Program-made: the position numbers and the translations under genes | The notes under the pieces: generated by a model | Databases searched by the model: none | What the model was told of the DNA's origin: nothing | Seen by the model: only the letters and a program-made list of their open reading frames with translations | NCBI GenBank assembly: GCA_041483175.1 | Contig: JBGPFD010000001.1 | Location: 1-47,807, forward strand | From: Thermoanaerobaculia bacterium | GTDB taxonomy: Bacteria; Acidobacteriota; Thermoanaerobaculia; Gp7-AA8 | Direction of reading: 5' to 3' | Length of the DNA stretch: 47,807 bases | In this document: positions 156 to 32,480 of the stretch, one piece after another | Position numbering within the stretch: position 1 is the first letter of the stretch | Layout: each line of letters begins with the position of its first letter

Positions 156-256
156 AAGAATGCAGAACGCAGAACGCAGAATGAAGAATCGAGAAACCTC
201 CCTCCGCCCGACGCTTTCTTCATTCTCAATTCTGCATTCTGCGTTCTGCATTCGGC
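156..256. repeat. Inverted pair of heptanucleotide tandem arrays forming a long imperfect hairpin: six units NAGAAYN, a 17-nt spacer, then six units RTTCTNC.
   Basis: Read directly. Left arm 156..197: aagaatg cagaacg cagaacg cagaatg aagaatc gagaaac. Right arm 215..256: tttcttc attctca attctgc attctgc gttctgc attcggc. About 34 of 42 positions are complementary. The array ends 18 nt from ATG 137 of the minus-strand oxidoreductase. Confidence 0.85.
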
Positions 257-412
257 GGACCCCACGAGACCCTCCGGCTCGCGTTGCAGAGAGAGAGGTA
301 GCTTCAGCAATTGGTCCACGGGAGCACGCCCATTCGCCCGCTCCCCGTGGCTGGGTCCGAGGTGGGCGCGTAGCTGAAGGGTCTCGAGCGACCCGCCGAA
401 TCGAATGCGACA

Positions 413-439
413 AAGAACAAAAAAGGGGCGCTACGCCCC
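413..439 (-). terminator. Intrinsic terminator downstream of the ferredoxin gene.
   Basis: On the minus strand: ggggcg tag cgcccc followed by ttttttgttctttg. It lies about 100 nt after the ferredoxin stop. Confidence 0.6.
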
Positions 440-540
440 TTTGCTGCCGTCTTCCGGCGCGAATCTGTTGCTAGTCAATCTAGTTCATGAACAAGACTAA
501 TCTAGTGACTCTGGTCACAAACTGGTCACGAATTTCAACG

Positions 541-936: not shown

Positions 937-962
937 AGTCCTGAGTCCTGAGTCCTGAGTCA
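937..962. repeat. Direct tandem heptamer array: (agtcctg) x3 plus partial agtca.
   Basis: Read directly at 937..962. The last partial unit supplies the TGA stop (960..962, minus strand) of the Gre-like gene. I found no inverted partner. Confidence 0.8.
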
Positions 963-5763: not shown

Positions 5764-5793
5764 ACGCCGCCGGGAACGGCGGCGTTTTTGTTT
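5764..5793. terminator. Bidirectional intrinsic terminator between convergent genes.
   Basis: acgccgccg ggaa cggcggcgt is followed by tttttgttt on the plus strand and by tttcgttttc on the minus strand. Confidence 0.7.

Positions 5794-6454: not shown

Positions 6455-6458
<4 letters not shown>
5817..6458 (-). CDS. Class I SAM-dependent O-methyltransferase (family 3, caffeoyl-CoA O-methyltransferase-like).
   Basis: [16 protein letters not shown] (SAM-binding motif I) and [13 protein letters not shown] (a DADK-like motif). GTG start 6458..6456 overlaps the prfA TGA (6457..6455) as GTGA. An alternative start at MEEFAAK is possible. The part of the track ORF above 6458 overlaps prfA. Confidence 0.75.
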
Positions 6459-7534
<1,076 letters not shown>

Positions 7535-7542
7535 GACGACCA

Positions 7543-7618
7543 AGCTCTTAGCTCTTAGCTCTTAGCTCTTGGGAGGGGAACTGCCCTGGGAGCTAATAGC
7601 TTAGAGCTAAGAGCTACG
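7543..7618. repeat. Inverted heptamer arrays forming a hairpin that fills the whole DUF1385-prfA intercistronic spacer.
   Basis: (agctctt) x4 are perfect at 7543..7570. A 20-nt centre follows. Then agctaat agcttag agctaag agctacg at 7591..7618. The array sits 8 nt from the prfA ATG and directly abuts the DUF1385 stop at 7619. Confidence 0.85.
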
Positions 7619-8635
7619 CTAGGCGACCGCGGCTCGTTCGGGTTCGAGCGCGTCGTACAGGAGCGCCTCGCGCAACGCGACGATGGCAATCTCGAGCTGC
7701 GAGTCGTCCGGCTCTTTGGTGGTGATCTTCTGCAGCCACAGGCCGGGGGTAATCATCGTCCGGCAGAGGCGGTTGCCGAGGTGACGCGCCGAGAAGCGGA
7801 TGACTTCGTAGGCCAGGCCCGCGATCAGCGGAATCAGCACGACGCGGGCGAGGAACTTCACCGCGAACGGCATGGTCGACGGCACCATCGAGAAGACGAC
7901 GATCGAAATCACGAGGACGAACATCAGGAAGCTCGTCCCGCAGCGCGGATGCAGCGTCGATTTTCCGCGCGCGTTCTCTACAGTCAGATCCTCATTCGCT
8001 TCGAAGGTATAGACCGTCTTGTGCTCGGCGCCGTGATACTGGAATACGCGGCGGATCTCCTTCATGAACGAGATGGAAAAGAGATAGACAAAGAAGAACA
8101 CCGCGCGAATGAGGCCGTCGATGGCGTTGTACAGCAGATTGCTCATTGAGGGGAGAAGGTAATGGCGGATCAGATTGGTGATCCCCAGCGGCGCGAGGAT
8201 GAAGATCCCGATGCCCAGCAGCATGGCGATGATCATCGATCCCGTCACCGCCCAACTCGACATTTCCTGCTCCCCTTCTTCCGATTCCGTAGCCACGCTG
8301 GCCGAGTAGTTCAGCGCGCGAATGCCCAGGATCAGCGACTGGATGAGCACGACCGACCCGCGAAGAATCGGAAACTTCAAAAAGGGGTACTTCTTGGTAA
8401 TCGACACCAGCTTGTCTTTGCGTATAGCCACACCGCCGTCCGGCTGGCGCACGGCGATGGAGTAGCCGGTCAGCGAGCGCATCATCACGCCCTCGATGAC
8501 TGCCTGCCCGCCGATGAGCATGTCGACATTGCGGTCGGCGGCGGCCGGCATGGACGAGGTGAGGCCGTTCATCACCGCGCCGAACGTCCCGGTGATCAGC
8601 TTCGCCGAACCGACCCATGCCGCACGCAGAGACAT
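7619..8635 (-). CDS. DUF1385 domain-containing membrane protein (YqhQ-like).
   Basis: IGGQAVIEGVMMR and FQYHGAEHKTV motifs are present. ATG 8635 overlaps the rpmE TAA by 1 nt (TAATG). The rpmE-DUF1385-prfA order is a widespread conserved arrangement. Confidence 0.85.
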   Translation of the reverse strand: MSLRAAWVGSAKLITGTFGAVMNGLTSSMPAAADRNVDMLIGGQAVIEGVMMRSLTGYSIAVRQPDGGVAIRKDKLVSITKKYPFLKFPILRGSVVLIQSLILGIRALNYSASVATESEEGEQEMSSWAVTGSMIIAMLLGIGIFILAPLGITNLIRHYLLPSMSNLLYNAIDGLIRAVFFFVYLFSISFMKEIRRVFQYHGAEHKTVYTFEANEDLTVENARGKSTLHPRCGTSFLMFVLVISIVVFSMVPSTMPFAVKFLARVVLIPLIAGLAYEVIRFSARHLGNRLCRTMITPGLWLQKITTKEPDDSQLEIAIVALREALLYDALEPERAAVA

Positions 8636-8847
8636 TATTTCTTCACCTCTCTTTTCGCGTACCGCTGGTTGAAACGGTCGATGCGGCCGGCAGAGTCGAC
8701 CAGCTTCTGCTTTCCGGTGAAGAACGGGTGGCATTTCGAGCAAATCTCGACACGCAGCTCCTTTTTCGTGGAGCGCGTGACCCAGGTCTCACCGCAGGCG
8801 CAGTGAACCTGAACCTCCTGGTATTGCGGATGGATCTCTGTTTTCAT
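8635..8847 (-). CDS. rpmE: 50S ribosomal protein L31 (zinc-binding type A).
   Basis: [22 protein letters not shown]...[13 protein letters not shown]. Confidence 0.95.
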
Positions 8848-10586: not shown

Positions 10587-10721
10587 CTACGGCATCGGGA
10601 GCCCCATCGTGAAGGTCGAGCCGTCCCCTTTCTCGCTGCGGACGCGAATCCACCCGTTGTGAGCTTCGACAACGGCCCTGGTGATGTACAGCCAGAGGCC
10701 GAGGCCCCTGTATAGAAATCC
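10587..10721 (-). pseudogene. Relic of a histidine kinase C-terminus (HATPase_c G2 box to stop), with no upstream body.
   Basis: Translation gives GFLYRGLGLWLYITRAVVEAHNGWIRVRSEKGDGSTFTMGLPMP*. The reading frame upstream of it is only the antisense of mazG. Confidence 0.6.
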
Positions 10722-10745
10722 CCAGGCGCGGCAGTTGGGCGCCGC

Positions 10746-10751
10746 TAAAAT
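10746..10751 (+). promoter_or_regulatory. Candidate -10 box (TAAAAT) 6 nt upstream of the mazG ATG; possible leaderless transcript.
   Basis: gccgcTAAAATgcgcacATG, with no Shine-Dalgarno sequence between them. Confidence 0.3.
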
Positions 10752-10757
10752 GCGCAC

Positions 10758-11540
10758 ATGTCGAAACGCTCGTTCGACGACCTCGTCGCGCTGATGACTA
10801 CCCTTCGCGGCTCGAACGGATGCCCGTGGGATCGCAAGCAGACGCTTGCCAGCCTCAAGCCGTTCATCGTGGAGGAATCGTACGAGGTTGTCGACGCCAT
10901 CGACCGTGACGACCGTCAAGCTTTGCAAGAAGAACTCGGTGACTTTCTCCTCCAGGCCGTGTTCGTCGCCGAGATTGCGCGTGAGGAAGGTTCCTTCACC
11001 ATCGACGACGCCGTCACCGCGATTTACGACAAGCTCGTCCGCAGGCATCCCCACGTTTTCGGCGACGTGGAAGCCAACGACGCGGAGCAGGTGCTGGTCA
11101 ACTGGGAAAAGCTGAAAAATGAGGAGCGCAAGACGGAGAACAAGGGCGTGCTGTCGGGGGTTCCGCAGTCGCTTCCGGCGCTGCTCAAGGCCTCGCGGCT
11201 GACGGAGAAGGCGGCCCGCGTCGGCTTCGACTGGCGGCGCGCCGAGGATGTGTTCGCCAAGATCGACGAAGAGATCGGCGAGCTGCGCGATGCCGTCGCG
11301 GAGCGCGACCCGCAGAAGATTCACGATGAGATCGGCGATCTGCTGTTCACCATCGCCAACATCGCGCGCAAGCTGGAAGCGAGCGCCGAAGAGGCGTTGC
11401 AATCGTCGAATCGGAAGTTCCGGCGGCGCTTCGAGGCGATGGAACGCGCCGTGCGCGCCGACGGCCGCAATCTCGATCAGCTCACGCTCGAGCAGATGGA
11501 TGCCCTATGGGACGAGGCAAAGGCCGCCGAGCACTCCTGA
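10758..11540 (+). CDS. mazG: Nucleoside triphosphate pyrophosphohydrolase MazG.
   Basis: FDDLVALMTTLRGSNGCPWDRKQTLASLKPFIVEESYEVVDAI together with the second MazG repeat EEIGELRDAV...EIGDLLFTIANIAR. Confidence 0.9.
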   Translation: MSKRSFDDLVALMTTLRGSNGCPWDRKQTLASLKPFIVEESYEVVDAIDRDDRQALQEELGDFLLQAVFVAEIAREEGSFTIDDAVTAIYDKLVRRHPHVFGDVEANDAEQVLVNWEKLKNEERKTENKGVLSGVPQSLPALLKASRLTEKAARVGFDWRRAEDVFAKIDEEIGELRDAVAERDPQKIHDEIGDLLFTIANIARKLEASAEEALQSSNRKFRRRFEAMERAVRADGRNLDQLTLEQMDALWDEAKAAEHS

Positions 11541-11797
11541 TCGCTGCCTGCGCGCTGCTGCTGCTTGCCGCGCAGCTCTTCGGCACACGCCCGGCGCTCT
11601 TGGCCATCGACGAGTACCGCGCGCACATCTCGCCGCACCTGCGCGGAATCGTCGAATGTCGCTTCGTCCCGAGCTGCTCGTATTACGGCCGGGAGTCGAT
11701 TCGCCAGCACGGCCTGCTGCTCGGCGGCGCCAAAACGGTGTGGCGCATCGCGCGATGCGGACCGTGGACGCCGCTCCATACGCCCGACCCACCGTGA
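11507..11797 (+). CDS. yidD: Membrane protein insertion efficiency factor YidD.
   Basis: YRAHISPHLRGIVECRFVPSCSYYGRESIRQHG...RIARCGPW matches the DUF37/YidD pattern. The start is uncertain, because ATG 11507 overlaps the mazG end by 34 nt. Confidence 0.8.
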   Translation: MGRGKGRRALLIAACALLLLAAQLFGTRPALLAIDEYRAHISPHLRGIVECRFVPSCSYYGRESIRQHGLLLGGAKTVWRIARCGPWTPLHTPDPP

Positions 11798-11803
11798 ACG
11801 GGA

Positions 11804-11880
11804 TACGGCACGGCGCAGCCGTGCCCTGCACAACCGGTTCTTGCATCGGCACCGTAGGGCACGGCTGCGCCGTGCCGCAC
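11804..11880. repeat. GC-rich inverted-repeat element made of two copies of a self-folding 22-mer, between convergent yidD and nth.
   Basis: cggcacggcgcagccgtgccct at 11806..11827 has its exact reverse complement at 11856..11877. Each copy is itself a hairpin (ggcacggc-gca-gccgtgcc). Confidence 0.8.
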
Positions 11881-11886
11881 CCCGGA

Positions 11887-14907: not shown

Positions 14908-15240
14908 ATGGCCGGCGCGAAGCTCCATCCAGCCGATTTTCTTTCCCGCATTCCAGGGCCCGCCGGGGAACGATCGACCCTAGTGTTCGAGCACGGCACG
15001 CTGACCGTGAAGCTGTACGCGCCGCGCGGCACCGATCCGCAGCAGCCGCATGGCCGCGATGAGGCGTACATCGTGATCCGCGGGCGCGGCACGTTCGTGC
15101 ATGGCGACCGGCGCGATCGATTTGAGCCCGATGATTTTCTCTGGGCGCCCGCGGGCTTGTCGCACCGCTTCGAGAACTTCACCGACGATCTGCTGGTCTG
15201 GGTGATTTATTACGGCGTGGAGGGAGGCGAGAGTTCGTAG
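14908..15240 (+). CDS. Cupin domain-containing protein.
   Basis: HGRDEAYIVIRGRGTFVHGDRRDRFEPDDFLWAPAGLSHRFENF is a cupin two-motif pattern. I chose ATG 14908; the upstream part of the track ORF overlaps the preceding gene in antisense. Confidence 0.7.
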   Translation: MAGAKLHPADFLSRIPGPAGERSTLVFEHGTLTVKLYAPRGTDPQQPHGRDEAYIVIRGRGTFVHGDRRDRFEPDDFLWAPAGLSHRFENFTDDLLVWVIYYGVEGGESS

Positions 15241-15250
15241 TTCGTAGTGA

Positions 15251-15556
15251 TTACGACGACCAGCGCTCGCCGCACGAGGCGCAGCGCCATCGCGGCGCGA
15301 TGAGGAAGAAGATGCCCCCCGAAAGCGCGAAGAGGAATGCGGCCATCATCTGATCGACAGCCATGCCGAGGCCGAAGGCGAGCAGGAGAAAGAGAGCGTA
15401 GCTGTGCAGCTTGCGTACGCGGCGGACGTCGGGCGATCCGCACGCCTGGCAATGTTCCGGCGGGCGCGCCGGTTCGGCATCGCTCGGCCTGACGAATTCG
15501 GCGTGCTCCACGCCGTACAGCCGGTTCAGAGATTCATCCCGATCATCGGAGCGCAT
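15251..15556 (-). CDS. Small hypothetical membrane protein with split CxxC...CxxC pairs.
   Basis: CQACGSPD, then two hydrophobic helices, then CASCGERW. ATG 15556. No family recognised. Confidence 0.5.
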   Translation of the reverse strand: MRSDDRDESLNRLYGVEHAEFVRPSDAEPARPPEHCQACGSPDVRRVRKLHSYALFLLLAFGLGMAVDQMMAAFLFALSGGIFFLIAPRWRCASCGERWSS

Positions 15557-15589: not shown

Positions 15590-17434
15590 ATGCGCTGGAA
15601 ATTCGCGGCGTTGGTCCTCTTCCTTGCGGTCTCGCCGGCGTTCGGAAAATCGCTCTACTGGCGCGCGCTCGACGTCAACGCCCGGCTCGATGCCGACGGC
15701 CGCCTGCACGTGCGCGAACAGCAGGCTATGGTCTTCGATGGCGATTGGAACGGCGGCGAACGGCGGTTCAATCTGCGGCAGGGGCAGGTCCTCGATTTCA
15801 AAGGCATGAGCCGGGTCGAGGACGGGCGCGAGATCGAGCTCACACGCGGCGATCTCTCTCGAGTCGATCACTGGGACTTCGCCGGCGCGAATATCATCCG
15901 CTGGCGCAGCCGGCTGCCGGGCAACGCTCCGTTCCGAAATCAAGAACTGATCTACGTGCTCGACTACGTCCTCTCGAACATTCTTGACCAGTCGGGCGGC
16001 CGCGTGCACCTGCAGCACGATTTCGCATTTCCCGATCGCGCGGGCGTGATCAAGAGCTATTCATTGCATTTGGAGCTCGATCCGGCATGGGAAGGCCTCA
16101 AATCGCCGCTGGACACCCATCGCCAAAATCTTGCGCCGGGACAGAGCATGGTGATCGTCGCCAATCTGACGTATGCCGGCGCCGGCAAGCCGGCGGCGAT
16201 CCATGTTTCGCCTTCTCGCCTCCAACTCCTCTTCCTTCCGATTCTGATGCTGCTGGCGGGTGCACTGCTGACACTTTACTTCTACTGGAACGAAGTGCAG
16301 AAGGGACGTTTCGCGCCGCTGTTCCCGCAAGCGCTCATCAACGACCAATGGCTGCAGCGATACGTCTTTTCGCTGCCACCCGAAGCGGTCGGCGCAGCAT
16401 GGGACGAAAAGACCGGCGCGCCGGAGGTCTGCGCGATCATCGCCCGGATGGCGCAGGAAAAGAAACTGACGACCTGGGTCACCGAGGAAAGCCACCTCCT
16501 GGGAACGATACAGATTCTTCATCTGCGACTGAATGTCGACTGGAATACCTTGCCGGGTGGCGAGAAGGAGCTCATCGAGGCGCTTTTTCTGGGGAAGCTG
16601 GAAACCGATACGAAGGCGATCGCCGCGTACTACCGCAACACCGGTTTTCGTCCCGAATCGCTGATCCGCGGTTCGATCGACCTCACGCTGGGGATGGTGC
16701 CCGAATGGAGCAAGCCGGAACGCGCTGTAACGACAGGCGAGATCTTCGTGGGGCTCTTTGCCTTCGTCTGTGGTTTTGTCGCGCTCAGAAACAAAGCGGA
16801 CGGGCTCGACGTGCTGCTGTTGCTCGCCGGAATGGTGATCATGCTGGGACTGGTCATCGCTGTAGGAGTGCGCCACAGCGCGGAGCGGCTCATGACCACG
16901 ATGTCGCCGATCTTCGCCTGGCTGATTCTGATTGTCGTCGGGATGGCCTGCTACCTCGGCGCCGAGCTCGAGGTCTCTTCGTTGTTTCTCGTGCCCGCCG
17001 CGTTTGGAGGCGTCGCGCTGGCGGCACTGATTCTCCTGGTGAGCCGCTCGCGCGATTCGGTGACCAAGCTCGCCTTTCGGCGCCGCCTCGCCGCCGCGCG
17101 CGCGTTCTTCAAGTCGCAGCTCCGCTTGCCGCATCCACGCCTGCGCGACGAGTGGTACCCGTACCTCGTCGCACTCGGATTGGGCGGCGACGTCGACCAC
17201 TGGTTCCGTTCGTTCTCAGGGGCAACGAGCAGCACCAGTAATTGGTCGGGCAGCTCCTCGGGCAGCTCCTCCTCGAGCTGGACCGGCGGCGGGGGCGCGT
17301 TCGGCGGCGCCGGGGCGAGCGGCTCGTGGGCGGCGATGTCGGCGCTCGGGGGCGGCGTCGCGGCCCCCGGCTCCAGCGGTGGCGGGGGCGGTGGGGGTGG
17401 GGGTGGGGGTTCGGGCGGGGGCGGCGGGTGGTGA
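15590..17434 (+). CDS. DUF2207 domain-containing membrane protein with a Gly/Ser-rich tail.
   Basis: Signal peptide, then YWRALDVNARLDADGRLHVREQQAMVFDGDWNGGERRF, multiple TM helices and a C-terminal ...SSGGGGGGGGGGSGGGGGW tail typical of DUF2207. Confidence 0.75.
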   Translation: MRWKFAALVLFLAVSPAFGKSLYWRALDVNARLDADGRLHVREQQAMVFDGDWNGGERRFNLRQGQVLDFKGMSRVEDGREIELTRGDLSRVDHWDFAGANIIRWRSRLPGNAPFRNQELIYVLDYVLSNILDQSGGRVHLQHDFAFPDRAGVIKSYSLHLELDPAWEGLKSPLDTHRQNLAPGQSMVIVANLTYAGAGKPAAIHVSPSRLQLLFLPILMLLAGALLTLYFYWNEVQKGRFAPLFPQALINDQWLQRYVFSLPPEAVGAAWDEKTGAPEVCAIIARMAQEKKLTTWVTEESHLLGTIQILHLRLNVDWNTLPGGEKELIEALFLGKLETDTKAIAAYYRNTGFRPESLIRGSIDLTLGMVPEWSKPERAVTTGEIFVGLFAFVCGFVALRNKADGLDVLLLLAGMVIMLGLVIAVGVRHSAERLMTTMSPIFAWLILIVVGMACYLGAELEVSSLFLVPAAFGGVALAALILLVSRSRDSVTKLAFRRRLAAARAFFKSQLRLPHPRLRDEWYPYLVALGLGGDVDHWFRSFSGATSSTSNWSGSSSGSSSSSWTGGGGAFGGAGASGSWAAMSALGGGVAAPGSSGGGGGGGGGGGSGGGGGW

Positions 17435-19853: not shown

Positions 19854-19911
19854 GGGAACGCGAGTTTAAATCATGTCACGGGATAGGAGGCCACATGCCG
19901 ACCTCCCGCGG

Positions 19912-20006
19912 CCTTCTCAATTCTGCATTCTGCGTTCTGCATTTATGGGCCATTCTTGCTCTGTTTCCGTTTTCTTGCTCATTCTGCATTCTGCGTTTCG
20001 CCTGCT
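19912..20006. repeat. Unidirectional heptamer arrays (attctgc-type) in a divergent intergenic region, sharing a 30-nt exact block with 223..252.
   Basis: cttctca attctgc attctgc gttctgc at 19912..19939 and cattctg cattctg cgtttcg cctgctg at 19979..20006. ttctcaattctgcattctgcgttctgcatt at 19913..19942 is identical to 223..252. Confidence 0.8.
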
Positions 20007-20071
20007 GTCGCAACCGCCGGCCGCTAACTTTTTCCCCTGCCGCGCGTAATAGGCTCTCAAAAGGAGGCGCC

Positions 20072-21019
20072 ATGCGTCGCAGCCGAATCACGCTTATCCT
20101 CGCCTTACTCTTCATTCCCGCGGCCCTCGCGGCCGCCGATGCCCCCCTCCACCGTACGTTCAACGTCGCTCCCGGCGGAACGCTGACCATCGATGCCGAC
20201 GTCGGCAACATTCAGGTCAGCCCGGGCGCCGGCGGTGTAACAGTCGATGTGTTCCAGCGTGGGCGGAGCGAAAGCAATTTTGAAGTCACCTTGGATCAGC
20301 AGGCGAACGACGTCATCGTTCGCGCTCGCGACCACCGTGCCTCACGCTGGTTCAACTGGAGGAACGATCTTGAGGTGAAGTTCGCGGTCACCGTTCCGTC
20401 GCGCTACAACCTGCAGCTCAACACTTCGGGCGGCGACATCGGTGTCGGCGATCTCCAGGGCGATGTCCACTGTAAGACTTCGGGGGGGACGATCCGCGCC
20501 GGCCACATCACCGGTCCGGTCGAAGCGCGCACGTCCGGCGGCGATGTTTCCGTCGATGCCGCCACCGGCAAGCTCGATCTTCACACCTCCGGCGGAAGCA
20601 TTCGCATTGGCGATGCGGCCGGGTCGGTTCAGGCGAAGACCTCCGGCGGGTCGATCGACGTCCGCCGCGCCGGCGGGGACCTCTATGCACGAACCTCTGG
20701 CGGCGGCATCACCATCGACGAGGCCCTCGGCGCCGTCGATGCGCAGACGTCCGGCGGGTCGATCCGCGCCCGACTCACACAGCAGCCGCGCGCCGATTCG
20801 CGCCTCTCCACATCCGGCGGGAGCATCACCGTCTCCATGGCGCCGAGCGTAGCCCTCGACGTCGACGCGCACACCAGCGGCGGCGATGTCGACACCGACA
20901 TCCCGGTCACGCTCCTCGGCCGGCAGAGCGACTCGTCGCTCGAGGGGAAAATCAACGGCGGCGGACCAAAACTCGTCCTGCGCTCCTCGGGCGGCGGCAT
21001 CCGGCTGCGGAAAATGTAG
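20072..21019 (+). CDS. DUF4097 family beta-strand repeat protein (putative adhesin), secreted.
   Basis: An aaggagg RBS, ATG 20072, the signal peptide MRRSRITLILALLFIPAALAAA and about nine TSGG(D/S)I repeats. Confidence 0.75.
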   Translation: MRRSRITLILALLFIPAALAAADAPLHRTFNVAPGGTLTIDADVGNIQVSPGAGGVTVDVFQRGRSESNFEVTLDQQANDVIVRARDHRASRWFNWRNDLEVKFAVTVPSRYNLQLNTSGGDIGVGDLQGDVHCKTSGGTIRAGHITGPVEARTSGGDVSVDAATGKLDLHTSGGSIRIGDAAGSVQAKTSGGSIDVRRAGGDLYARTSGGGITIDEALGAVDAQTSGGSIRARLTQQPRADSRLSTSGGSITVSMAPSVALDVDAHTSGGDVDTDIPVTLLGRQSDSSLEGKINGGGPKLVLRSSGGGIRLRKM

Positions 21020-21094
21020 CGGGCGATCTATCTGGTCGCCCGGCGCTGGCGAGCGCGGCGCCAGCACTGAAGCCCCTCATCCGGCCTTCGGCCA

Positions 21095-21235
21095 CCTTCT
21101 CCCCGCAACCGGGGAGAAGGGTTCTCGCGCGAGTTCCCTCGCTCCCCGTAGCGGGGAGAGGGTGCCGCGAAGCAACCGGGGAGAAGGGTTCTCGCGCGAG
21201 TTCCCTCGCCCCGCGTAGCGGGGAGAGGGTGCCGC
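21095..21235. repeat. GC-rich REP-like hairpin cluster containing a 63-nt unit repeated twice (period 67).
   Basis: Units at 21106..21168 and 21173..21235 are near-identical (caaccggggagaagggttctcgcgcgagttccctcgc...gtagcggggagagggtgccgc). An 11-bp stem, ccttctccccg/cggggagaagg, lies at 21095..21120. Confidence 0.8.
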
Positions 21236-23587: not shown

Positions 23588-24709
23588 GTGGCCCACCTCC
23601 GCGACTGGCTTGACCTCGGACGAAACACGATCGACTCGCTGAAGATCAGCGATGCGACCCGTTTCTACGAAACCGAGTGGCCGGAAACGAAAAGGATGCT
23701 CATCGCCGACCATAGGGAGGCGATCGAGGGAGAGCGCAAACGCGTCCGGCGCACGGTCCGAACTGCGAGCGCCATCATGCACGGCCTGGCCAAACGGCTT
23801 GCGCCGCACCGGCGCGTCCTGTTTGTGCTGTCGTGGATTTCGTTCTTCGTCTGCATCATGGCCATCTTCTCGCGGATGAATCACCCGCCGTTCGTCATCT
23901 TTGTGGAGATCGTGGCCACATTCCTCGTGCTCACGCTGCTGCTGGCGATGGAACTCATCGACAAGATCAAATATCGCGACGAGCTCGAGCTCGCCCGCGA
24001 CCTGCAGGCGGGGCTGATTCCGAAAGAGCCGGCGCAGACACCCGAGTTCGGCGTGGCAGCATTCAACGAGATCGCCAATACCGTCGGCGGCGACATCTAT
24101 GACTTCGTGCCGCTGCCCGACGGCCGGCTCGCGGTGCTCTTCGGTGACGCATCCGGCCACGGGATGGCCGCTGGTCTGGTGATGGCCGTAGCGCACGCCG
24201 CGTTTCGAACGGAACTCGACGTCGATCCCTCCCCCGTCGGCATCATCACCGCACTCAATCGCATCCTCTGCCGCACCGGCGGATCGCGATCGTTTTTCGC
24301 CTGCTGCTACGTTCTCCTCGCGCCCGATGGCACGTTCAGCGCGACGGTCGCCGGACATCCGCAGGTGCTCAAGATCGACTGCCACGGAAAAATCGTCGAG
24401 CGACTCGGATCCGGCTCGTATCCGCTCGGCATCAAGAGCAGCCTTACATGGCCGGAGATCCACGGCACGCTCGCACTGGGAGAGCGCCTGCTGCTCCATT
24501 CGGACGGGCTGACGGAAGCGCGCAATGCCCACGGGCGCGAGTTCGGCGACGCGTTCGTCGAGGCGGTTGTTGGCTGGAGCCCCAGCGCACCGCCCGCGGA
24601 GCTCGTGCGGACGCTCATCGACGAGTGGAAGCTGTTCACGGGCGACCGGCCGCCGGAGGATGACGTGTCGGTGGCCGTGGTGCAGCGCACGATGTCATCC
24701 CGAGCGTAG
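23588..24709 (+). CDS. Membrane-anchored PP2C-family (SpoIIE-type) serine phosphatase.
   Basis: Two TM helices, then GGDIYDFVPLPDGRLAVLFGDASGHGMAAGLVMA, HSDGLTEARN and DDVSVAVV, which are SpoIIE domain motifs. GTG start. Confidence 0.85.
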   Translation: MAHLRDWLDLGRNTIDSLKISDATRFYETEWPETKRMLIADHREAIEGERKRVRRTVRTASAIMHGLAKRLAPHRRVLFVLSWISFFVCIMAIFSRMNHPPFVIFVEIVATFLVLTLLLAMELIDKIKYRDELELARDLQAGLIPKEPAQTPEFGVAAFNEIANTVGGDIYDFVPLPDGRLAVLFGDASGHGMAAGLVMAVAHAAFRTELDVDPSPVGIITALNRILCRTGGSRSFFACCYVLLAPDGTFSATVAGHPQVLKIDCHGKIVERLGSGSYPLGIKSSLTWPEIHGTLALGERLLLHSDGLTEARNAHGREFGDAFVEAVVGWSPSAPPAELVRTLIDEWKLFTGDRPPEDDVSVAVVQRTMSSRA

Positions 24710-24817
24710 CGAGGGACCTGGGCGGACGGGCGGCACGCATCTGTAGCCGTCGACATTCGCCATCGACATCCCGGCGCCACACACCCACACAGGCCCCTCG
24801 CTACGCTCGGGGTGACA
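24693..24817. repeat. MITE-like element with 28-bp terminal inverted repeats (26/28 matching) flanking 69 nt, spanning the 3' ends of two convergent genes.
   Basis: Left arm tgtcatcccgagcgtagcgagggacctg at 24693..24720. Right arm caggcccctcgctacgctcggggtgaca at 24790..24817. Confidence 0.8.
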
Positions 24818-26666
24818 CAGCTTGCCGCTCGACCAGCCCCTCGAACACCTGCAACGCCAGATCGACGCGCCCCAACGGCGCAGACACCTGCACGCCGGCG
24901 ACCTGCACGCGCTCGAGCGTCTCGCGCGCGATTGTCACGCCCTCGCGCAACGCGAATTCTTTTCCTTTGTCGCTGGCGATGCGCATCCGCTCCATGACTT
25001 CATCCGAAACCGCGACGCCGGGCACCTCGTTGTTCATGAACTGCGCGTTGCGGTACGAGAGCAGCGGCCAAATGCCGGCGACGATTGGCAAGCGCATGTT
25101 CTCGATGCGCTTCAAGAATTTCTCGAGCACGACGACATCGAAGACCGGCTGGGTGATCGCGTACTCCGCTCCGGCCTTCACCTTCCACTCGAGCCGCCGC
25201 AACTCGTAATCGAGATCGAGGTGACCCGGATTGACGCCGACGCCGATGGTGAACTTCGTCGGCTCGCCGAAGGGATTCCCGCCGAGATCGAGACCGCGAT
25301 TCATCAGGCTGACCATATTCGTCAGGCCGATGGCATCGATGTCAAAGACCGCGGTGGCATCGGGATACGGCCCCATCTTCGGCGGATCGCCGGTAATCAA
25401 CAGGAGATTGCGCAGCCCGAGCGCGGCGCATCCGAGCAGATCGGAGTGCATGCCGAGGAGGTTGCGATCGCGGCAGCAGTAATGGAGGACCGCCTCGATT
25501 CCCACGCGCTGCTGCAGCAGCACGGCGACGGCGATCGCTCCCATCCGATTCTGCGCGCGCGGGCCGTCGGGCACGTTGACACCGTCGACGCCTGCTTCCT
25601 TGATCGCCTGCACTGACTTGAGCATGGCCTCGGGATTCGGGCCCTTCGGCGGCGTGATCTCGATGGTCGTGACGAATTCTCCGCGCGCGATCTTGTGCCC
25701 CCAGCGCGAGCGCCCTTCGAGCGGAATCGGCTCCTGTCCCTGCGTCTTCTTTCCGTTCGCTTCGCGCTCGATGATCACAAACGAGCGACGCGGCGACAGC
25801 GGCCGGACCGCGTCGGCCATGGCGTGAATGTGCTCGGGCGTCGTCCCGCAGCAGCCGCCGAGGAACTTCACTCCTTTGTGAATCAGCCGCTTCGCGTATT
25901 TCGCCATGTAGTCGGGCGAGGCCATGTACATCTGCCGGCCGGCGACTTCGCGCGGCAATCCGGCGTTGGGCTGGCATGACAACTTCCGCGCCGTGGCGGC
26001 GCTCATCTCCTCAATAGCGTCGAGCATGACGTCGGGGCCGACCGAACAATTGAGCCCGATGACGTCGGCCCCCGCGCGATCGAGCCGTTCGGCGATCTGT
26101 CGCGGCGTGTCGCCGAAAATCGTCCGGACATCGTTGCCGATCGTCATCTGCGCCACGACCGGCAGCGAACAGATGTCGCGGATGGCCAGGATTCCCTGCT
26201 CGACCTCGGCGATGTTCGACATGGTCTCCAGGATGAAGAGGTCTACCCCGCCATCGCGCAGCGCCGCGGCCTGCTGGCGAAAGAACTCGCGCGCCTCGTC
26301 CAGCGCCGTCGGGCCGTACGGCTCGATGCGGATGCCCAGCGGACCGATCGCGCCGGCGACGTAGACCGAATCGCCCGCCGCCTTGCGCGCCAGCTCGACC
26401 GCGGTCAGGTTGATCTCGCGCAACTCGTCTTCGATGCCGAAGCTGCGCAGTTTCACCCGATTCGCGCCGTAGGTGTTGGTCTCCAGAATCTCGGCGCCCG
26501 CGCGCACGTACTGCTTGTGCACCTCCAGCACGATCTCCGGATTGCGGAGATTAAGCTCGTCGTAGCACTTGTTGATGAAGACTCCCTTGGCGTAGAGCAT
26601 CGTCCCCATAGCTCCGTCGAAAAGGTAGACGTGCTCGTCGGCAATCGCTTGAATGAAATCTTGCAT
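24801..26666 (-). CDS. Bifunctional homocysteine S-methyltransferase / 5,10-methylenetetrahydrofolate reductase (YitJ-like fusion).
   Basis: The N-terminal Hcy-binding domain is LFDGAMGTMLY...ETNTYGAN...GGCCGTTPEHI. The C-terminal MTHFR domain covers roughly 330..621 aa. Confidence 0.9.
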   Translation of the reverse strand: MQDFIQAIADEHVYLFDGAMGTMLYAKGVFINKCYDELNLRNPEIVLEVHKQYVRAGAEILETNTYGANRVKLRSFGIEDELREINLTAVELARKAAGDSVYVAGAIGPLGIRIEPYGPTALDEAREFFRQQAAALRDGGVDLFILETMSNIAEVEQGILAIRDICSLPVVAQMTIGNDVRTIFGDTPRQIAERLDRAGADVIGLNCSVGPDVMLDAIEEMSAATARKLSCQPNAGLPREVAGRQMYMASPDYMAKYAKRLIHKGVKFLGGCCGTTPEHIHAMADAVRPLSPRRSFVIIEREANGKKTQGQEPIPLEGRSRWGHKIARGEFVTTIEITPPKGPNPEAMLKSVQAIKEAGVDGVNVPDGPRAQNRMGAIAVAVLLQQRVGIEAVLHYCCRDRNLLGMHSDLLGCAALGLRNLLLITGDPPKMGPYPDATAVFDIDAIGLTNMVSLMNRGLDLGGNPFGEPTKFTIGVGVNPGHLDLDYELRRLEWKVKAGAEYAITQPVFDVVVLEKFLKRIENMRLPIVAGIWPLLSYRNAQFMNNEVPGVAVSDEVMERMRIASDKGKEFALREGVTIARETLERVQVAGVQVSAPLGRVDLALQVFEGLVERQAVSPRA

Positions 26667-26740
26667 AGGCGTTAGGTCCTGGGCGTTAGGCGTTGGGTGC
26701 TTCGGCTTACCTAACGCCTAGCGCCTGATACCTAACGCCT
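26667..26740. repeat. Inverted heptamer arrays (five plus five units) forming a 74-nt hairpin that directly abuts the start codon of the Hcy-MT/MTHFR gene.
   Basis: aggcgtt aggtcct gggcgtt aggcgtt gggtgct, then tcgg, then cttacct aacgcct agcgcct gatacct aacgcct. The ATG is at 26666..26664. Confidence 0.85.
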
Positions 26741-26772
26741 AAAAAAACAAATCCCCGCTGGGCTGCGGGGAC
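26741..26772 (-). terminator. Intrinsic terminator in the 5' leader of the Hcy-MT/MTHFR gene; candidate riboswitch expression platform.
   Basis: On the minus strand: ccccgc agccca gcgggg, followed by atttgttttttt. Confidence 0.65.
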
Positions 26773-26794
26773 CGTCGCTTACGCGAACTCTTGC

Positions 26795-26850
26795 CGGCTC
26801 TTTAGCTTTTTTTTAGCTGGTTGCAAGCGGCCCCCAAATCAATCCAGCAC
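26795..26850 (-). promoter_or_regulatory. Candidate SAM-II-clan (SAM_alpha/metA-type) riboswitch aptamer.
   Basis: The minus-strand RNA reads GAUUGAUUUGGGGGCCGCUUGCAACCAGCUAAAAAAAAGCUAAAGAG. From memory this matches the SAM-II core (GAUUU..GCUU..UUGCA..GCUAAAAAAGCU). GCUU/AAGC pseudoknot pairing is possible. It lies upstream of a methionine-cycle gene and is followed by a terminator. No covariance-model check was possible. Confidence 0.45.
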
Positions 26851-26881
26851 CCGCAAATGTACGTTCTCGCCTGAAAGAAGT

Positions 26882-29091: not shown

Positions 29092-29172
29092 GTTCGTCTA
29101 AATTACACCGCTACCAAGCAACCAAATTGCCACCGCGGTCGATCTCTGAAGTCTTCACAAAGGAGAAAACGC

Positions 29173-29577
29173 ATGGCCACCAGGAAACGGTCGAAGAAGT
29201 CCTCTTCCAAGCGCTCGAAATCGTCGGCGAAGAAGAAATCCGCCAGCCATTCGCGCAAGGGCAAAGGCGCAAAGAAGAGCGTCGCGAAAAAGAGACCGGT
29301 AAAGAAAGCCGCCGCGAAAAAGAAACCGGTAAAGAAAGCCGCCGCGAAAAAGAGCGCAGCCCCCAAGCCGGCGCCCAGCCGCAGCGCGCCGAAGCCCGCC
29401 GCCCCGGCACCGCGCCCGAGCAAGAGCGTGATCAGCCGCGTGGTCGAGCAGGTACGCGACACCGCCAGACCGTTCGGCTCGTCGATCGGAAGCACGATGC
29501 CTGGCCGCCGCGAAGAAGAGCCGTATGGCGGCGGCGGCGGGGAAGACCCGGAAGGCGGCTCCTCGGAAGAGTTCTGA
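29173..29577 (+). CDS. Lysine/alanine-rich histone H1-like nucleoid protein with an acidic Gly-rich tail.
   Basis: An aaggag RBS precedes ATG 29173. The protein begins MATRKRSKKSSSKRSKSSAKKKSASHSRKGKGAKKSVAKKRPVKKAAAKKKPVKKAAAKK. A 30-bp unit is tandemly repeated about 2.4 times at 29284..29355. Confidence 0.7.
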   Translation: MATRKRSKKSSSKRSKSSAKKKSASHSRKGKGAKKSVAKKRPVKKAAAKKKPVKKAAAKKSAAPKPAPSRSAPKPAAPAPRPSKSVISRVVEQVRDTARPFGSSIGSTMPGRREEEPYGGGGGEDPEGGSSEEF

Positions 29578-32406: not shown

Positions 32407-32422
32407 CGTGGCTCCTGTGACA

Positions 32423-32480
32423 TTGCCGGTTACCTGTTTCCGGAGAGTTCCGGCAACTGGCAACCGGGAACCGGCAACTT
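32423..32480. repeat. Inverted heptamer arrays filling the spacer between the two kinase genes.
   Basis: ttgccgg ttacctg tttccgg at 32423..32443. ccggcaa ctggcaa ccgggaa ccggcaa at 32450..32477. The outer units are perfectly complementary. The array ends 16 nt from ATG 32406. Confidence 0.75.

Follow-up and report, generated by a model that had tools for sequence, protein, structure and literature searches.

Hairpins built from tandem seven-base units are common in a lineage of Thermoanaerobaculia (Acidobacteriota) and are present in other bacteria too, and they resemble a by-product of DNA copying more than a switch purpose-built for start codons. The stretch analysed here, which we call the window, comprises 47,807 nucleotides (positions 1 to 47,807 of contig JBGPFD010000001.1 from a Thermoanaerobaculia bacterium), and one such hairpin fills the spacer between its DUF1385 and prfA genes. 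These hairpins are real and common and form a class reaching beyond the window. Our best explanation, to which we give a probability of about one half, is that they are palindromes of heptanucleotide simple-sequence repeats, a fast-turnover kind of intergenic DNA that would originate by slippage and template switching and be tolerated as self-folding inserts.

Period-7 arrays were located with Tandem Repeats Finder (TRF), at scores of 30-56 in the window, and period-7 calls at every locus listed in an earlier note made from the letters of this DNA confirm that the arrays exist. On the mRNA, which reads along the minus strand, 7543-7570 forms the 3' arm, (AAGAGCU)x4, of the DUF1385-prfA hairpin and stops 8 nt short of the prfA ATG at 7534, and the other end of the hairpin touches the DUF1385 stop codon TAG (7619-7621); the four perfect AGCTCTT units and the filling of the whole spacer, from the base next to the stop to 8 nt before the ATG, are as first described. 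The arms are 92% complementary (7543-7568 against 7590-7615), and the predicted fold has an energy of -44.2 kcal/mol against a shuffle mean of -25.1 (z = -6.5). For the hairpin at 156-256, located 18 nt from ATG 137 and downstream of a conserved structured RNA, the arms are 87% complementary (158-196 against 215-253) and the energy is -62 kcal/mol (z = -7.8). At 26666-26741 the corresponding values are 82% (26666-26698 against 26709-26741) and -45.9 kcal/mol (z = -6.9); this stem lies 0 nt from ATG 26666, the start of a homocysteine S-methyltransferase/MTHFR fusion gene, and is preceded by a SAM-II-like aptamer and a terminator-like stem. The asymmetric hairpin at 32422-32480, which begins directly after the stop codon of a kinase-FHA gene (32481) and ends 16 nt from a kinase ATG (32406), with an AGGAG Shine-Dalgarno sequence between array and start, is weaker (-32 kcal/mol, z = -3.5). 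Each fold was compared with 200 dinucleotide shuffles, and in no case was any of the 200 as stable as the hairpin itself. The long hairpins proposed in the earlier note are thus borne out by their energies, and the distances to start codons (18, 8, 0 and 16 nt) can be read directly from the sequence; the claim that both arms are present at all four loci stands for three, with arm pairs 82-92% complementary, but is too strong for 32423-32480, where the second arm amounts to only ~1.7 units. All seven arrays of the window lie in non-coding DNA, despite spacers making up only ~10% of it (4,549 nt, a total counted with a false start of the DUF4097 gene), and 6 of the 24 spacers, about a quarter, contain such an array. 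No Rfam family matched at its gathering score anywhere in the window, and a permissive Rfam scan of the hairpins returned only weak chance matches to microRNA precursor models.

For comparison, contigs were fetched around DUF1385 genes and the neighbouring ferredoxin gene; L-numbers below denote these contigs or loci of relatives. In the GTDB species set, the DUF1385 proteins nearest to that of the window come from metagenome-assembled genomes of Thermoanaerobaculia (71-76% amino-acid identity); a larger protein collection includes the window's own DUF1385 protein and relatives at 78-90% identity, an exact look-up of the window's PrfA gave no entry in the collection searched, and the two closest metagenome matches end before the spacer. 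Arrays of at least three copies in the window comprise six of period 7, one of period 6 and none of periods 8-12. In the window together with 160 loci around DUF1385 genes of many phyla (1.37 Mb in all), strict arrays number 38 for period 7 and no more than four for each of the other periods between 4 and 15, and a block-shuffled control gave a single period-7 array, bearing out the prominence of period 7 noticed in the window. Within 194 kb of clade DNA there are 43 period-7 arrays against 18 weak arrays of the other periods from 5 to 11 combined, and these 18 are mostly of the coding periods 6 and 9. Of the 41 clade arrays, 30 are accompanied by a reverse-complement partner at most 150 nt away and none by a separate direct partner; in other taxa the figures are 21/67 and 2/67, and shuffled probes found 0 partners. 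The inverted arrangement is not random. Since independent assemblies from NCBI, JGI, ENA and Logan show this architecture too, the suspicion of an assembly artefact can be dismissed.

The units are diverse between loci and mostly not G-rich. Matching them with one mismatch allowed gave 231 pairs against ~147 expected by chance; this procedure is too permissive to establish a common consensus, and only specific shared segments convince. A stop codon inside the unit, which in tandem gives stops in all three frames, was likewise rejected as a rule, being present in AGCTCTT, TAGGCGT and GATGAAC and absent from GTTGCCG and CTCAGGA.

Nearness to start codons, which the earlier note took as the unifying feature, does not survive the comparison with relatives: of 19 sites there, 15 lie within ~16 nt of a stop codon or overlap the 3' end of a gene, and 8 lie within 25 nt of a start codon. 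Several fill spacers between convergent genes with no start codon near; the hairpins usually occupy the entire spacer, and the arrays in relatives overlap genes at their ends only (Table 1). What the sites have in common is tight spacers at gene ends, not start codons. Hairpins within operons fill spacers that in relatives are ~10-20 nt long or overlaps, a geometry so tight that one hairpin touches both stop and start. At the prfA/methyltransferase junction, for example, a 70-nt hairpin (GTTGTCG/CGACAAC) in L165 splits a gene pair that has a 4-nt ATGA overlap in four relatives, L161, L167 and L168 among them, and a GTGA overlap in the window.

Table 1 Heptamer arrays and hairpins of the window, the genes around the prfA hairpin, and spacer-filling hairpins on contigs of relatives
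Feature	Position	Strand	Remarks
DUF1385-prfA hairpin, arm 1	7543..7570	(-)	plus strand (AGCTCTT)x4.0, 100% matches
DUF1385-prfA hairpin, centre	7571..7589	(-)	loop and irregular middle, 19 nt
DUF1385-prfA hairpin, arm 2	7590..7618	(-)	imperfect GAGCTAA-type x3.9 (TRF 7590-7616); 5' arm on mRNA
prfA (peptide chain release factor 1), downstream cistron	6455..7534	(-)	PCRF and RF-1 domains
DUF1385 (YqhQ-like), upstream cistron	7619..8635	(-)	
rpmE	8635-8847	(-)	same gene row as DUF1385 and prfA
Hairpin of (AGAATGC)-type units	156..256	(-)	arms 157-196 and 215-253; NAD_binding_2 leader, ATG 137
AGAATGC array of this hairpin	157-189		TRF period 7
Complementary AGAATGC-type array	216-253		TRF period 7
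Hairpin of (TAGGCGT)/(ACGCCTA) units	26666..26741	(-)	TRF 26666-26694 and 26710-26742
Asymmetric hairpin	32422..32480	(-)	four (CCGGCAA) units 32450-32478 and ~1.7 complementary units 32422-32434
Direct-only array (AGTCCTG)x3.6, 100% matches	937..961	(-)	overlaps GreA-fusion stop (960-962)
Weak direct array (AGTTCGT)x2.4	15232..15248	(-)	2 nt past stop of ORF (open reading frame) 15251-15556
Degenerate direct array, ATTCTGC-type units	19912..20006	(+)	divergent intergenic region; TRF 19920-19943 and 19980-19994
Convergent spacer hairpin	L166 2567-2622		-2 and 0 nt from two stops
Convergent spacer hairpin	L168 2757-2837		-1 and -1 from stops
Convergent spacer hairpin	L165 79-135		overlaps both gene ends
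Co-directional spacer hairpin	L165 12130-12199		0 nt past stop, 4 nt ahead of start
Co-directional spacer hairpin	L003 636-720		-1 from stop, 4 from start
Co-directional spacer hairpin	L002 1390-1457		5 from stop, 4 from start
Co-directional spacer hairpin	L168 11032-11090		8 from stop, 7 from start

Individual junctions turn over rapidly. The DUF1385-prfA junction is at most 25 nt long or overlapping in 58 of 112 outgroup loci and holds a structured insert of 40-88 nt in 9 of 13 independent clade lineages; because the outgroup junction is mostly short or overlapping, the long structured spacer is derived. The window and L163 share a homologous hairpin of AGCTCTT units, and other heptamer hairpins occupy the same place in L002 (GTTGTTC), L005 (TAGTGGT) and L168 (GTTCGCG). 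A GC-rich stem with a T-run is found in L161/L162, L001 and L006 and a different palindrome in L164, the spacers of L167 and L004 have no clear structure, and just 10-19 nt with a Shine-Dalgarno sequence remain in L166, L169-171 and L003. Distant soil contigs carry heptamer hairpins of their own at this junction, namely L125 (TGGTCAG, running into the ATG), L153 (GGTGGTA), L149 (GCAGTAG, -87 kcal/mol) and L133 (GAGTTCA), which brings the unrelated heptamers recorded there to at least eight. Units also vary among relatives at the HhH-GPD/YidD junction (GATTTTG, GGCGGGT, AGTGCTG) and in the 3' untranslated region (UTR) of the methyltransferase gene (AGGTTCG, AATGTTA, GAATTTC), and upstream of NAD_binding_2 there is AGAATGC, GAGGTTC, AATGTTG, a non-heptamer stem or nothing; the 156-256 hairpin itself is kept in L166 and L168, and L165 has the GAGGTTC hairpin instead. 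L172 has (CTCTCCT)x5 and (AGTAGTC)x3.5, and L173 lacks the first array and has a degenerate second one; since their Fer4 ferredoxin proteins are identical, the L172 array points to a recent expansion.

We infer a two-step origin from these end states. A 7-nt unit beside a gene end would be amplified by replication slippage, and intramolecular template switching would then copy the array into an opposite arm, the stem gaining whole units on both sides; now and then, arms or entire elements would be copied to other loci. Such an insert could persist because a self-contained hairpin would loop out and keep the stop and start codons, or two stops, side by side, which would explain why it is tolerated in spacers of a few bases or in overlapping gene pairs. 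Template switching is known to make quasipalindromes more perfect (PMC7202029; PMC5941160). At the DUF1385-prfA junction, L165 has a short core hairpin (GGTTCGC...CGAACC) and L168 has this core and loop extended on each side by about four GTTCGCG units, which indicates growth by whole units. The seed can be local: in the window and in L166 the methyltransferase stop codon is followed by GAATTTC, the unit of L169, and because the L169 palindrome takes in the last codon and stop of the gene (AATTGAGAATTTC ... GAAATTCTCAATT), its far arm must have been copied, as the reverse complement, from DNA that was already there. Irregular units recur in mirrored form in the two arms, as seen for the TAGGT variants, units 2 and 5 of 26666-26741, and for AGAACGC, unit 2 of 156-256. 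In the 14 hairpins whose sense strand is known, sense and antisense RNA are each the more stable in seven cases, so that RNA-level selection on stability leaves no signal. Growth by units, the local seed, the mirrored variants, the recent change and the null strand bias all fit a two-step process at the DNA level.

Several observations weigh against this explanation. The window, L166 and L168 have the same sequence over 32-40 nt in the 3' arm of the 156-256 hairpin, although the DUF1385 proteins of the two relatives are each only 83-85% identical to that of the window, which suggests constraint or recent transfer rather than neutrality. One compensatory change separates the window from L163 (TTAGCT/AGCTAA to TTCGCT/AGCGAA). 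The same few spacers have been colonised repeatedly and many others never, and this could reflect selection for a hairpin there. Arm segments that are identical at unrelated loci imply a copying route that slippage alone does not explain, and REP-like dispersed palindromes coexist in these genomes. A covariation test of the 156-256 hairpin in three orthologues was uninformative because hardly any pair varies and the 3' arm does not differ.

Parallels in other bacteria bear on these questions, and they answer the earlier note, which knew of no described element of this architecture: inverted heptamers are on record in Xanthomonas (PMC4692102) and Geobacter (PMC2700814), and a leader hairpin made of repeats in Haemophilus influenzae (PMC12721329). 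The GGGAATC arrays of Xanthomonas (Rehm et al. 2015, PMC4692102) resemble those described here in being intergenic heptamers placed close together on opposite strands; there are ~70-75 convergent pairs per genome with stem-loop or cruciform potential, their length and sequence vary between close species, the single or inverted type is usually kept, and most are transcribed. Inverted pairing of this type characterises the clade arrays too, but the single G-rich unit does not: Xanthomonas has one such unit genome-wide, with G-quadruplex potential, whereas here there are dozens of unrelated units that are not G-rich as a rule, the same spacer holds differing units among relatives, and operon spacers are filled exactly. 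Aklujkar et al. 2009 (PMC2700814) reported paired heptanucleotide repeats in Geobacter metallireducens under the name 'global regulator binding sites'. They share with our arrays the three to five tandem heptamers, the opposite-strand pairs of variable spacing, the several families per genome and the placement between operon genes, such as proB-proA (PMC2700814); however, each family has 8-49 near-identical copies by BLAST and is read as a set of DNA-binding sites, whereas most units here occur once or twice in the sampled DNA and turn over between relatives.

Directly upstream of start codons, the TAACTGA repeats of Beggiatoaceae form direct arrays, with one indirect repeat among 169 sets (PMC4679880), and the inverted-array hairpin distinguishes the present case. 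According to Mrazek et al. 2007, as reported in PMC4679880, 7 is the commonest period of long repeats in prokaryotes and such repeats are intergenic, and the dominance of period 7 here agrees with that account; the arrays described above show both the excess (38 period-7 arrays against 1 in shuffled DNA) expected of long simple-sequence repeats, whose units measure 1-11 nt, and the preference for non-coding DNA expected where the unit length is no multiple of three. The closest tested case is the leader of H. influenzae hmw1A, in whose 5' UTR an (ATCTTTC)n hairpin is cut by RNase III, raising expression, and where changes in unit number require transcription, folding and RNase III (PMC12721329). 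The hmw repeat lies in a transcribed leader and is an arm of a long stable hairpin upstream of a start codon; the geometry of 156-256 and 26666-26741 (structured leader, then hairpin, then ATG) fits this, and both are presumably transcribed. The differences are that at hmw at least 11 units pair with a non-repetitive G-rich arm, whereas here 3-6 units pair with their own complementary array, and that hmw encodes a phase-variable adhesin of a pathogen, whereas here the neighbours are a soil bacterium's housekeeping genes and 3' UTRs account for many sites. A literature search for heptamer or heptanucleotide repeats in Acidobacteria found no report. Distinctive of the present class are the many unrelated units per genome, the exact filling of spacers and the replacement of units at one junction among relatives.

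Sequence shared between loci raises the alternative that the hairpins are non-autonomous mobile repeats, similar to repetitive extragenic palindromic (REP) elements and REPINs or to MITEs (miniature inverted-repeat transposable elements), in several families that a hairpin-recognising transposase inserts at gene ends. We consider this unlikely. In its favour is an identical 30-mer, variant-unit order included, at 221-250 and 19914-19943, which marks the array at 19912-20006 as a copy of one arm of the 156-256 hairpin and contradicts the earlier view that each locus has its own heptamer. Further segments are shared by unrelated loci (L165 12845 and L165 20205; L165 12125 and L003 630; L168 18330 and L169 4598), and AATGTTG arrays stand at differing loci in L168 and L178, so some copying between loci has taken place; most of the shared segments, however, are pure repeats that could arise independently. 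Transposition would also agree with the further dispersed palindromes in the same genomes and with the placement of the hairpins, which, like the transcribed REP, BIME (bacterial interspersed mosaic element) and REPIN palindromes of proteobacteria, are extragenic and stand at gene 3' ends or between cistrons. REPs have a conserved sequence with a GTAG/GTGG head, occur in hundreds of copies and are moved by RAYT transposases, and they lack the internal 7-nt period of the heptamer hairpins. No consensus with such a head emerged in the sampled DNA, where units are unrelated, few locus pairs share sequence, and the putative families have neither a conserved head motif nor common ends; nor does the 47.8-kb window contain any transposase gene, of the RAYT (Y1) type or other. 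Insertion would also sit badly with a unit traceable to the local flank, a palindrome that takes in the host stop codon, and unit numbers that change in place between relatives.

The hairpins are probably transcribed as part of a 5' leader, intercistronic spacer or 3' UTR, because two of those in the window sit between a structured leader and a start codon, and a transcribed hairpin would form near-perfect double-stranded RNA of 25-40 bp. It is about as improbable as transposition that they serve dedicated translational control, having been selected to bury a ribosome-binding site that a signal, a helicase or an upstream ribosome then opens. The idea draws on hairpins that stop 0, 8, 16 and 18 nt short of four starts, on the high stability (z about -7), on the sole Shine-Dalgarno-like AGGA of 26666-26741, which sits within the 3' arm, and on recurrence, some hairpin being found at DUF1385-prfA in 9/13 clade lineages and upstream of NAD_binding_2 in most relatives. 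Yet the sites in relatives mostly abut stops (15/19), several being convergent or in 3' UTRs with no start nearby; L166, L169, L003 and L184 lack a hairpin at the same junction; neither stability nor G-U pairs show a sense-strand bias; compensatory change is minimal; and the AGGAG site of the kinase gene lies outside the main stem. The proposal that the hairpins bury initiation regions can thus be kept for 7543-7618 and 26667-26740, which would sequester the region just upstream of the start, but not as a general rule. Close relatives without hairpins and the null strand test also speak against an essential role.

Effects on RNA may nevertheless arise as a side effect, on translational coupling or on RNA processing. 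The folded stem would hold the DUF1385 stop and the prfA start close together, and a ribosome that terminates at the UAG of DUF1385 would have to open the foot of the stem and would free the prfA start region, which would couple prfA translation to that of DUF1385. By analogy with REP elements and the hmw leader, the stems are plausible substrates of RNase III or barriers to 3' exonucleases. REP hairpins reportedly stabilise upstream mRNA (a result attributed to Newbury, 1987), and those at most ~15 nt from a stop codon are said to stall terminating ribosomes (attributed to Liang, Rudd and Deutscher, 2015); heptamer hairpins near stops could impede termination in the same way. A more specific proposal is that the prfA device could sense release factor 1 (RF1), a ribosome waiting at the DUF1385 UAG keeping the stem open and lifting prfA translation when the factor is scarce. 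TAG ends DUF1385 in 8/17 clade loci against a background of 28-33%, and a hand count from spacer alignments gave TAG in 8/10 hairpin lineages against 1/5 without (one-sided Fisher p ~0.05, also calculated by hand, and confounded by shared ancestry). This excess is no more than suggestive, distant hairpin-bearing loci use TAA or TGA, and the proposal was not supported.

The requirement for transcription, folding and RNase III in the gain and loss of hmw units also hints at a more active origin, in which a transcription- or RNA-structure-dependent process, genome-wide in soil Acidobacteriota, would take the place of passive slippage and repeatedly install 7-nt-periodic palindromes at gene boundaries, as interchangeable insulators that govern coupling and processing between cistrons. 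We regard this analogy-based scenario as quite improbable, more so than either alternative above.

Fainter still is the prospect that the hairpins are terminators or attenuators without a U-tract that reduce read-through or end convergent transcripts. Several do lie between convergent genes, and a GC-rich stem with a T-run takes their place at DUF1385-prfA in L161/L162, L001 and L006. However, the window hairpins have no T-run, and a terminator scan that does find canonical terminators at 422-442 (minus strand) and 5765-5784 (both directions) calls none of them. At the convergent methyltransferase/DUF1573 junction, where every species has the same bidirectional terminator (AAAAACGCCGCC...GGCGGCGTTTTT), L165, L168 and L169 carry a heptamer hairpin in addition, between the methyltransferase stop and that terminator, and in L165 termination at the hairpin that splits the prfA/methyltransferase pair would be harmful. 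The terminator hypothesis was rejected on the missing T-runs and this coexistence. We infer that the hairpins are neither a dedicated start-codon device nor terminators. Least probable of all is the contingency role that the earlier note had entertained, or an array bound, as DNA or RNA, by a protein that recognises the repeat: unit number does differ between relatives in species and strain comparisons, for Beggiatoaceae (PMC4679880) and Geobacter metallireducens (PMC2700814) it has been proposed that heptamers upstream of start codons bind proteins, and the hmw repeat is phase-variable (PMC12721329), but arrays of only 3-5, often imperfect, units slip rarely, their neighbours are housekeeping genes (prfA, the MTHFR fusion, kinases), and dozens of unrelated units argue against a single sequence-specific binder.

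Period-7 repeats have been known since 2007 as the commonest long simple repeats of prokaryotes, and the paired hairpins allow the birth, growth and death of repeat palindromes to be studied. With about three quarters of clade arrays (30/41) paired and one junction refilled with at least eight units, the interplay of slippage and template switching is testable, and the lineage suits the question of whether double-stranded RNA stems between tightly coupled genes are neutral, harmful or useful. Such hairpins are also easily mistaken for regulatory RNAs or terminators.

Gene prediction can be affected as well. The three direct-only arrays of the earlier note (937-961, 15232-15248 and 19912-20006) were all recovered and none folds, but the last is not next to a start: the DUF4097 gene most likely begins at ATG 20072, a start that has a GGAGG site and opens a typical signal peptide (MRRSRITLILALLF), and the array ends 65 nt upstream of it. 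A long ORF (19895-21019) reads through this array, and in L168 an array extends the C-terminus of a Mur ligase gene (15637-15668); a false start and C-terminal extensions of this sort mean that heptamer arrays can mislead gene callers. The spacer between the GreA-fusion and Fer4 genes (802-959) measures 158 nt in the window against 20-56 nt in six relatives, with a TACAATG(A/C)C motif kept near the Fer4 start, and the extra sequence, which opens with the AGTCCTG array, looks like an insertion seeded at the stop codon.

Other palindromes and repeats are present. Two convergent genes are separated at 24693-24817 by a long inverted repeat whose arms measure 42 nt (TGTCATCCCGAGCGTAGCGAGGGACC...), with similar copies at unrelated loci (L166 2869-2970, and L169 3925-3954 in the prfA/methyltransferase spacer); judged by these copies, it is a REP-like family of dispersed palindromes separate from the heptamer hairpins. 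The 684-nt spacer after the DUF4097 gene contains a 67-nt unit twice in tandem (21093-21235, 96% matches), each copy internally palindromic, and a similar copy is found at L166 10048-10104.

Two candidate RNA elements precede window hairpins. Between the Fer4 gene (541-801) and the 156-256 hairpin lies a non-coding element of ~145 nt (255-400, minus strand), which comes after the Fer4 terminator (422-442). Near-identical sequences occur at L165 20062-20210, L166 18198-18345, L168 18193-18340, L178 6395-6545 and L181 2940-3090, and a more divergent form in L172 and L173; in L178 the element stays beside Fer4, with HerA separating it from NAD_binding_2. From an alignment of 10 sequences, 48 pairs are predicted, 15 of them with compensatory double changes, in a fold that has a long outer stem and an inner hairpin; no Rfam family matches the element, and it is a candidate new structured leader or small RNA. 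The second is a sub-threshold match to the SAM-II riboswitch at 26792-26853 on the minus strand (37.3 bits, with the gathering score at 44; E = 1e-5), followed by a terminator-like stem and T-run at ~26745-26775 upstream of the homocysteine S-methyltransferase/MTHFR fusion gene (24801-26666); for this candidate the context makes biological sense, and the 26666-26741 hairpin stands between the apparent expression platform and the ATG.

Finally, at 10587-11886, where relatives have a 1,320-residue GAF/PAS histidine kinase followed by MazG and YidD genes, the window has a 271-residue ORF corresponding to the C-terminal HATPase_c part and then 484 nt of non-coding DNA with an inverted repeat at 11799-11884 (29-nt arms, 93% complementary); the difference is a deletion, a rearrangement or an assembly join. 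In or beside a small ORF without a Pfam match (29103-29495), a 30-nt tandem repeat of 2.8 copies (AAAGAAAGCCGCCGCGAAAAAGAGACCGGT) spans 29271-29354 and may encode a lysine/alanine-rich repeat protein.

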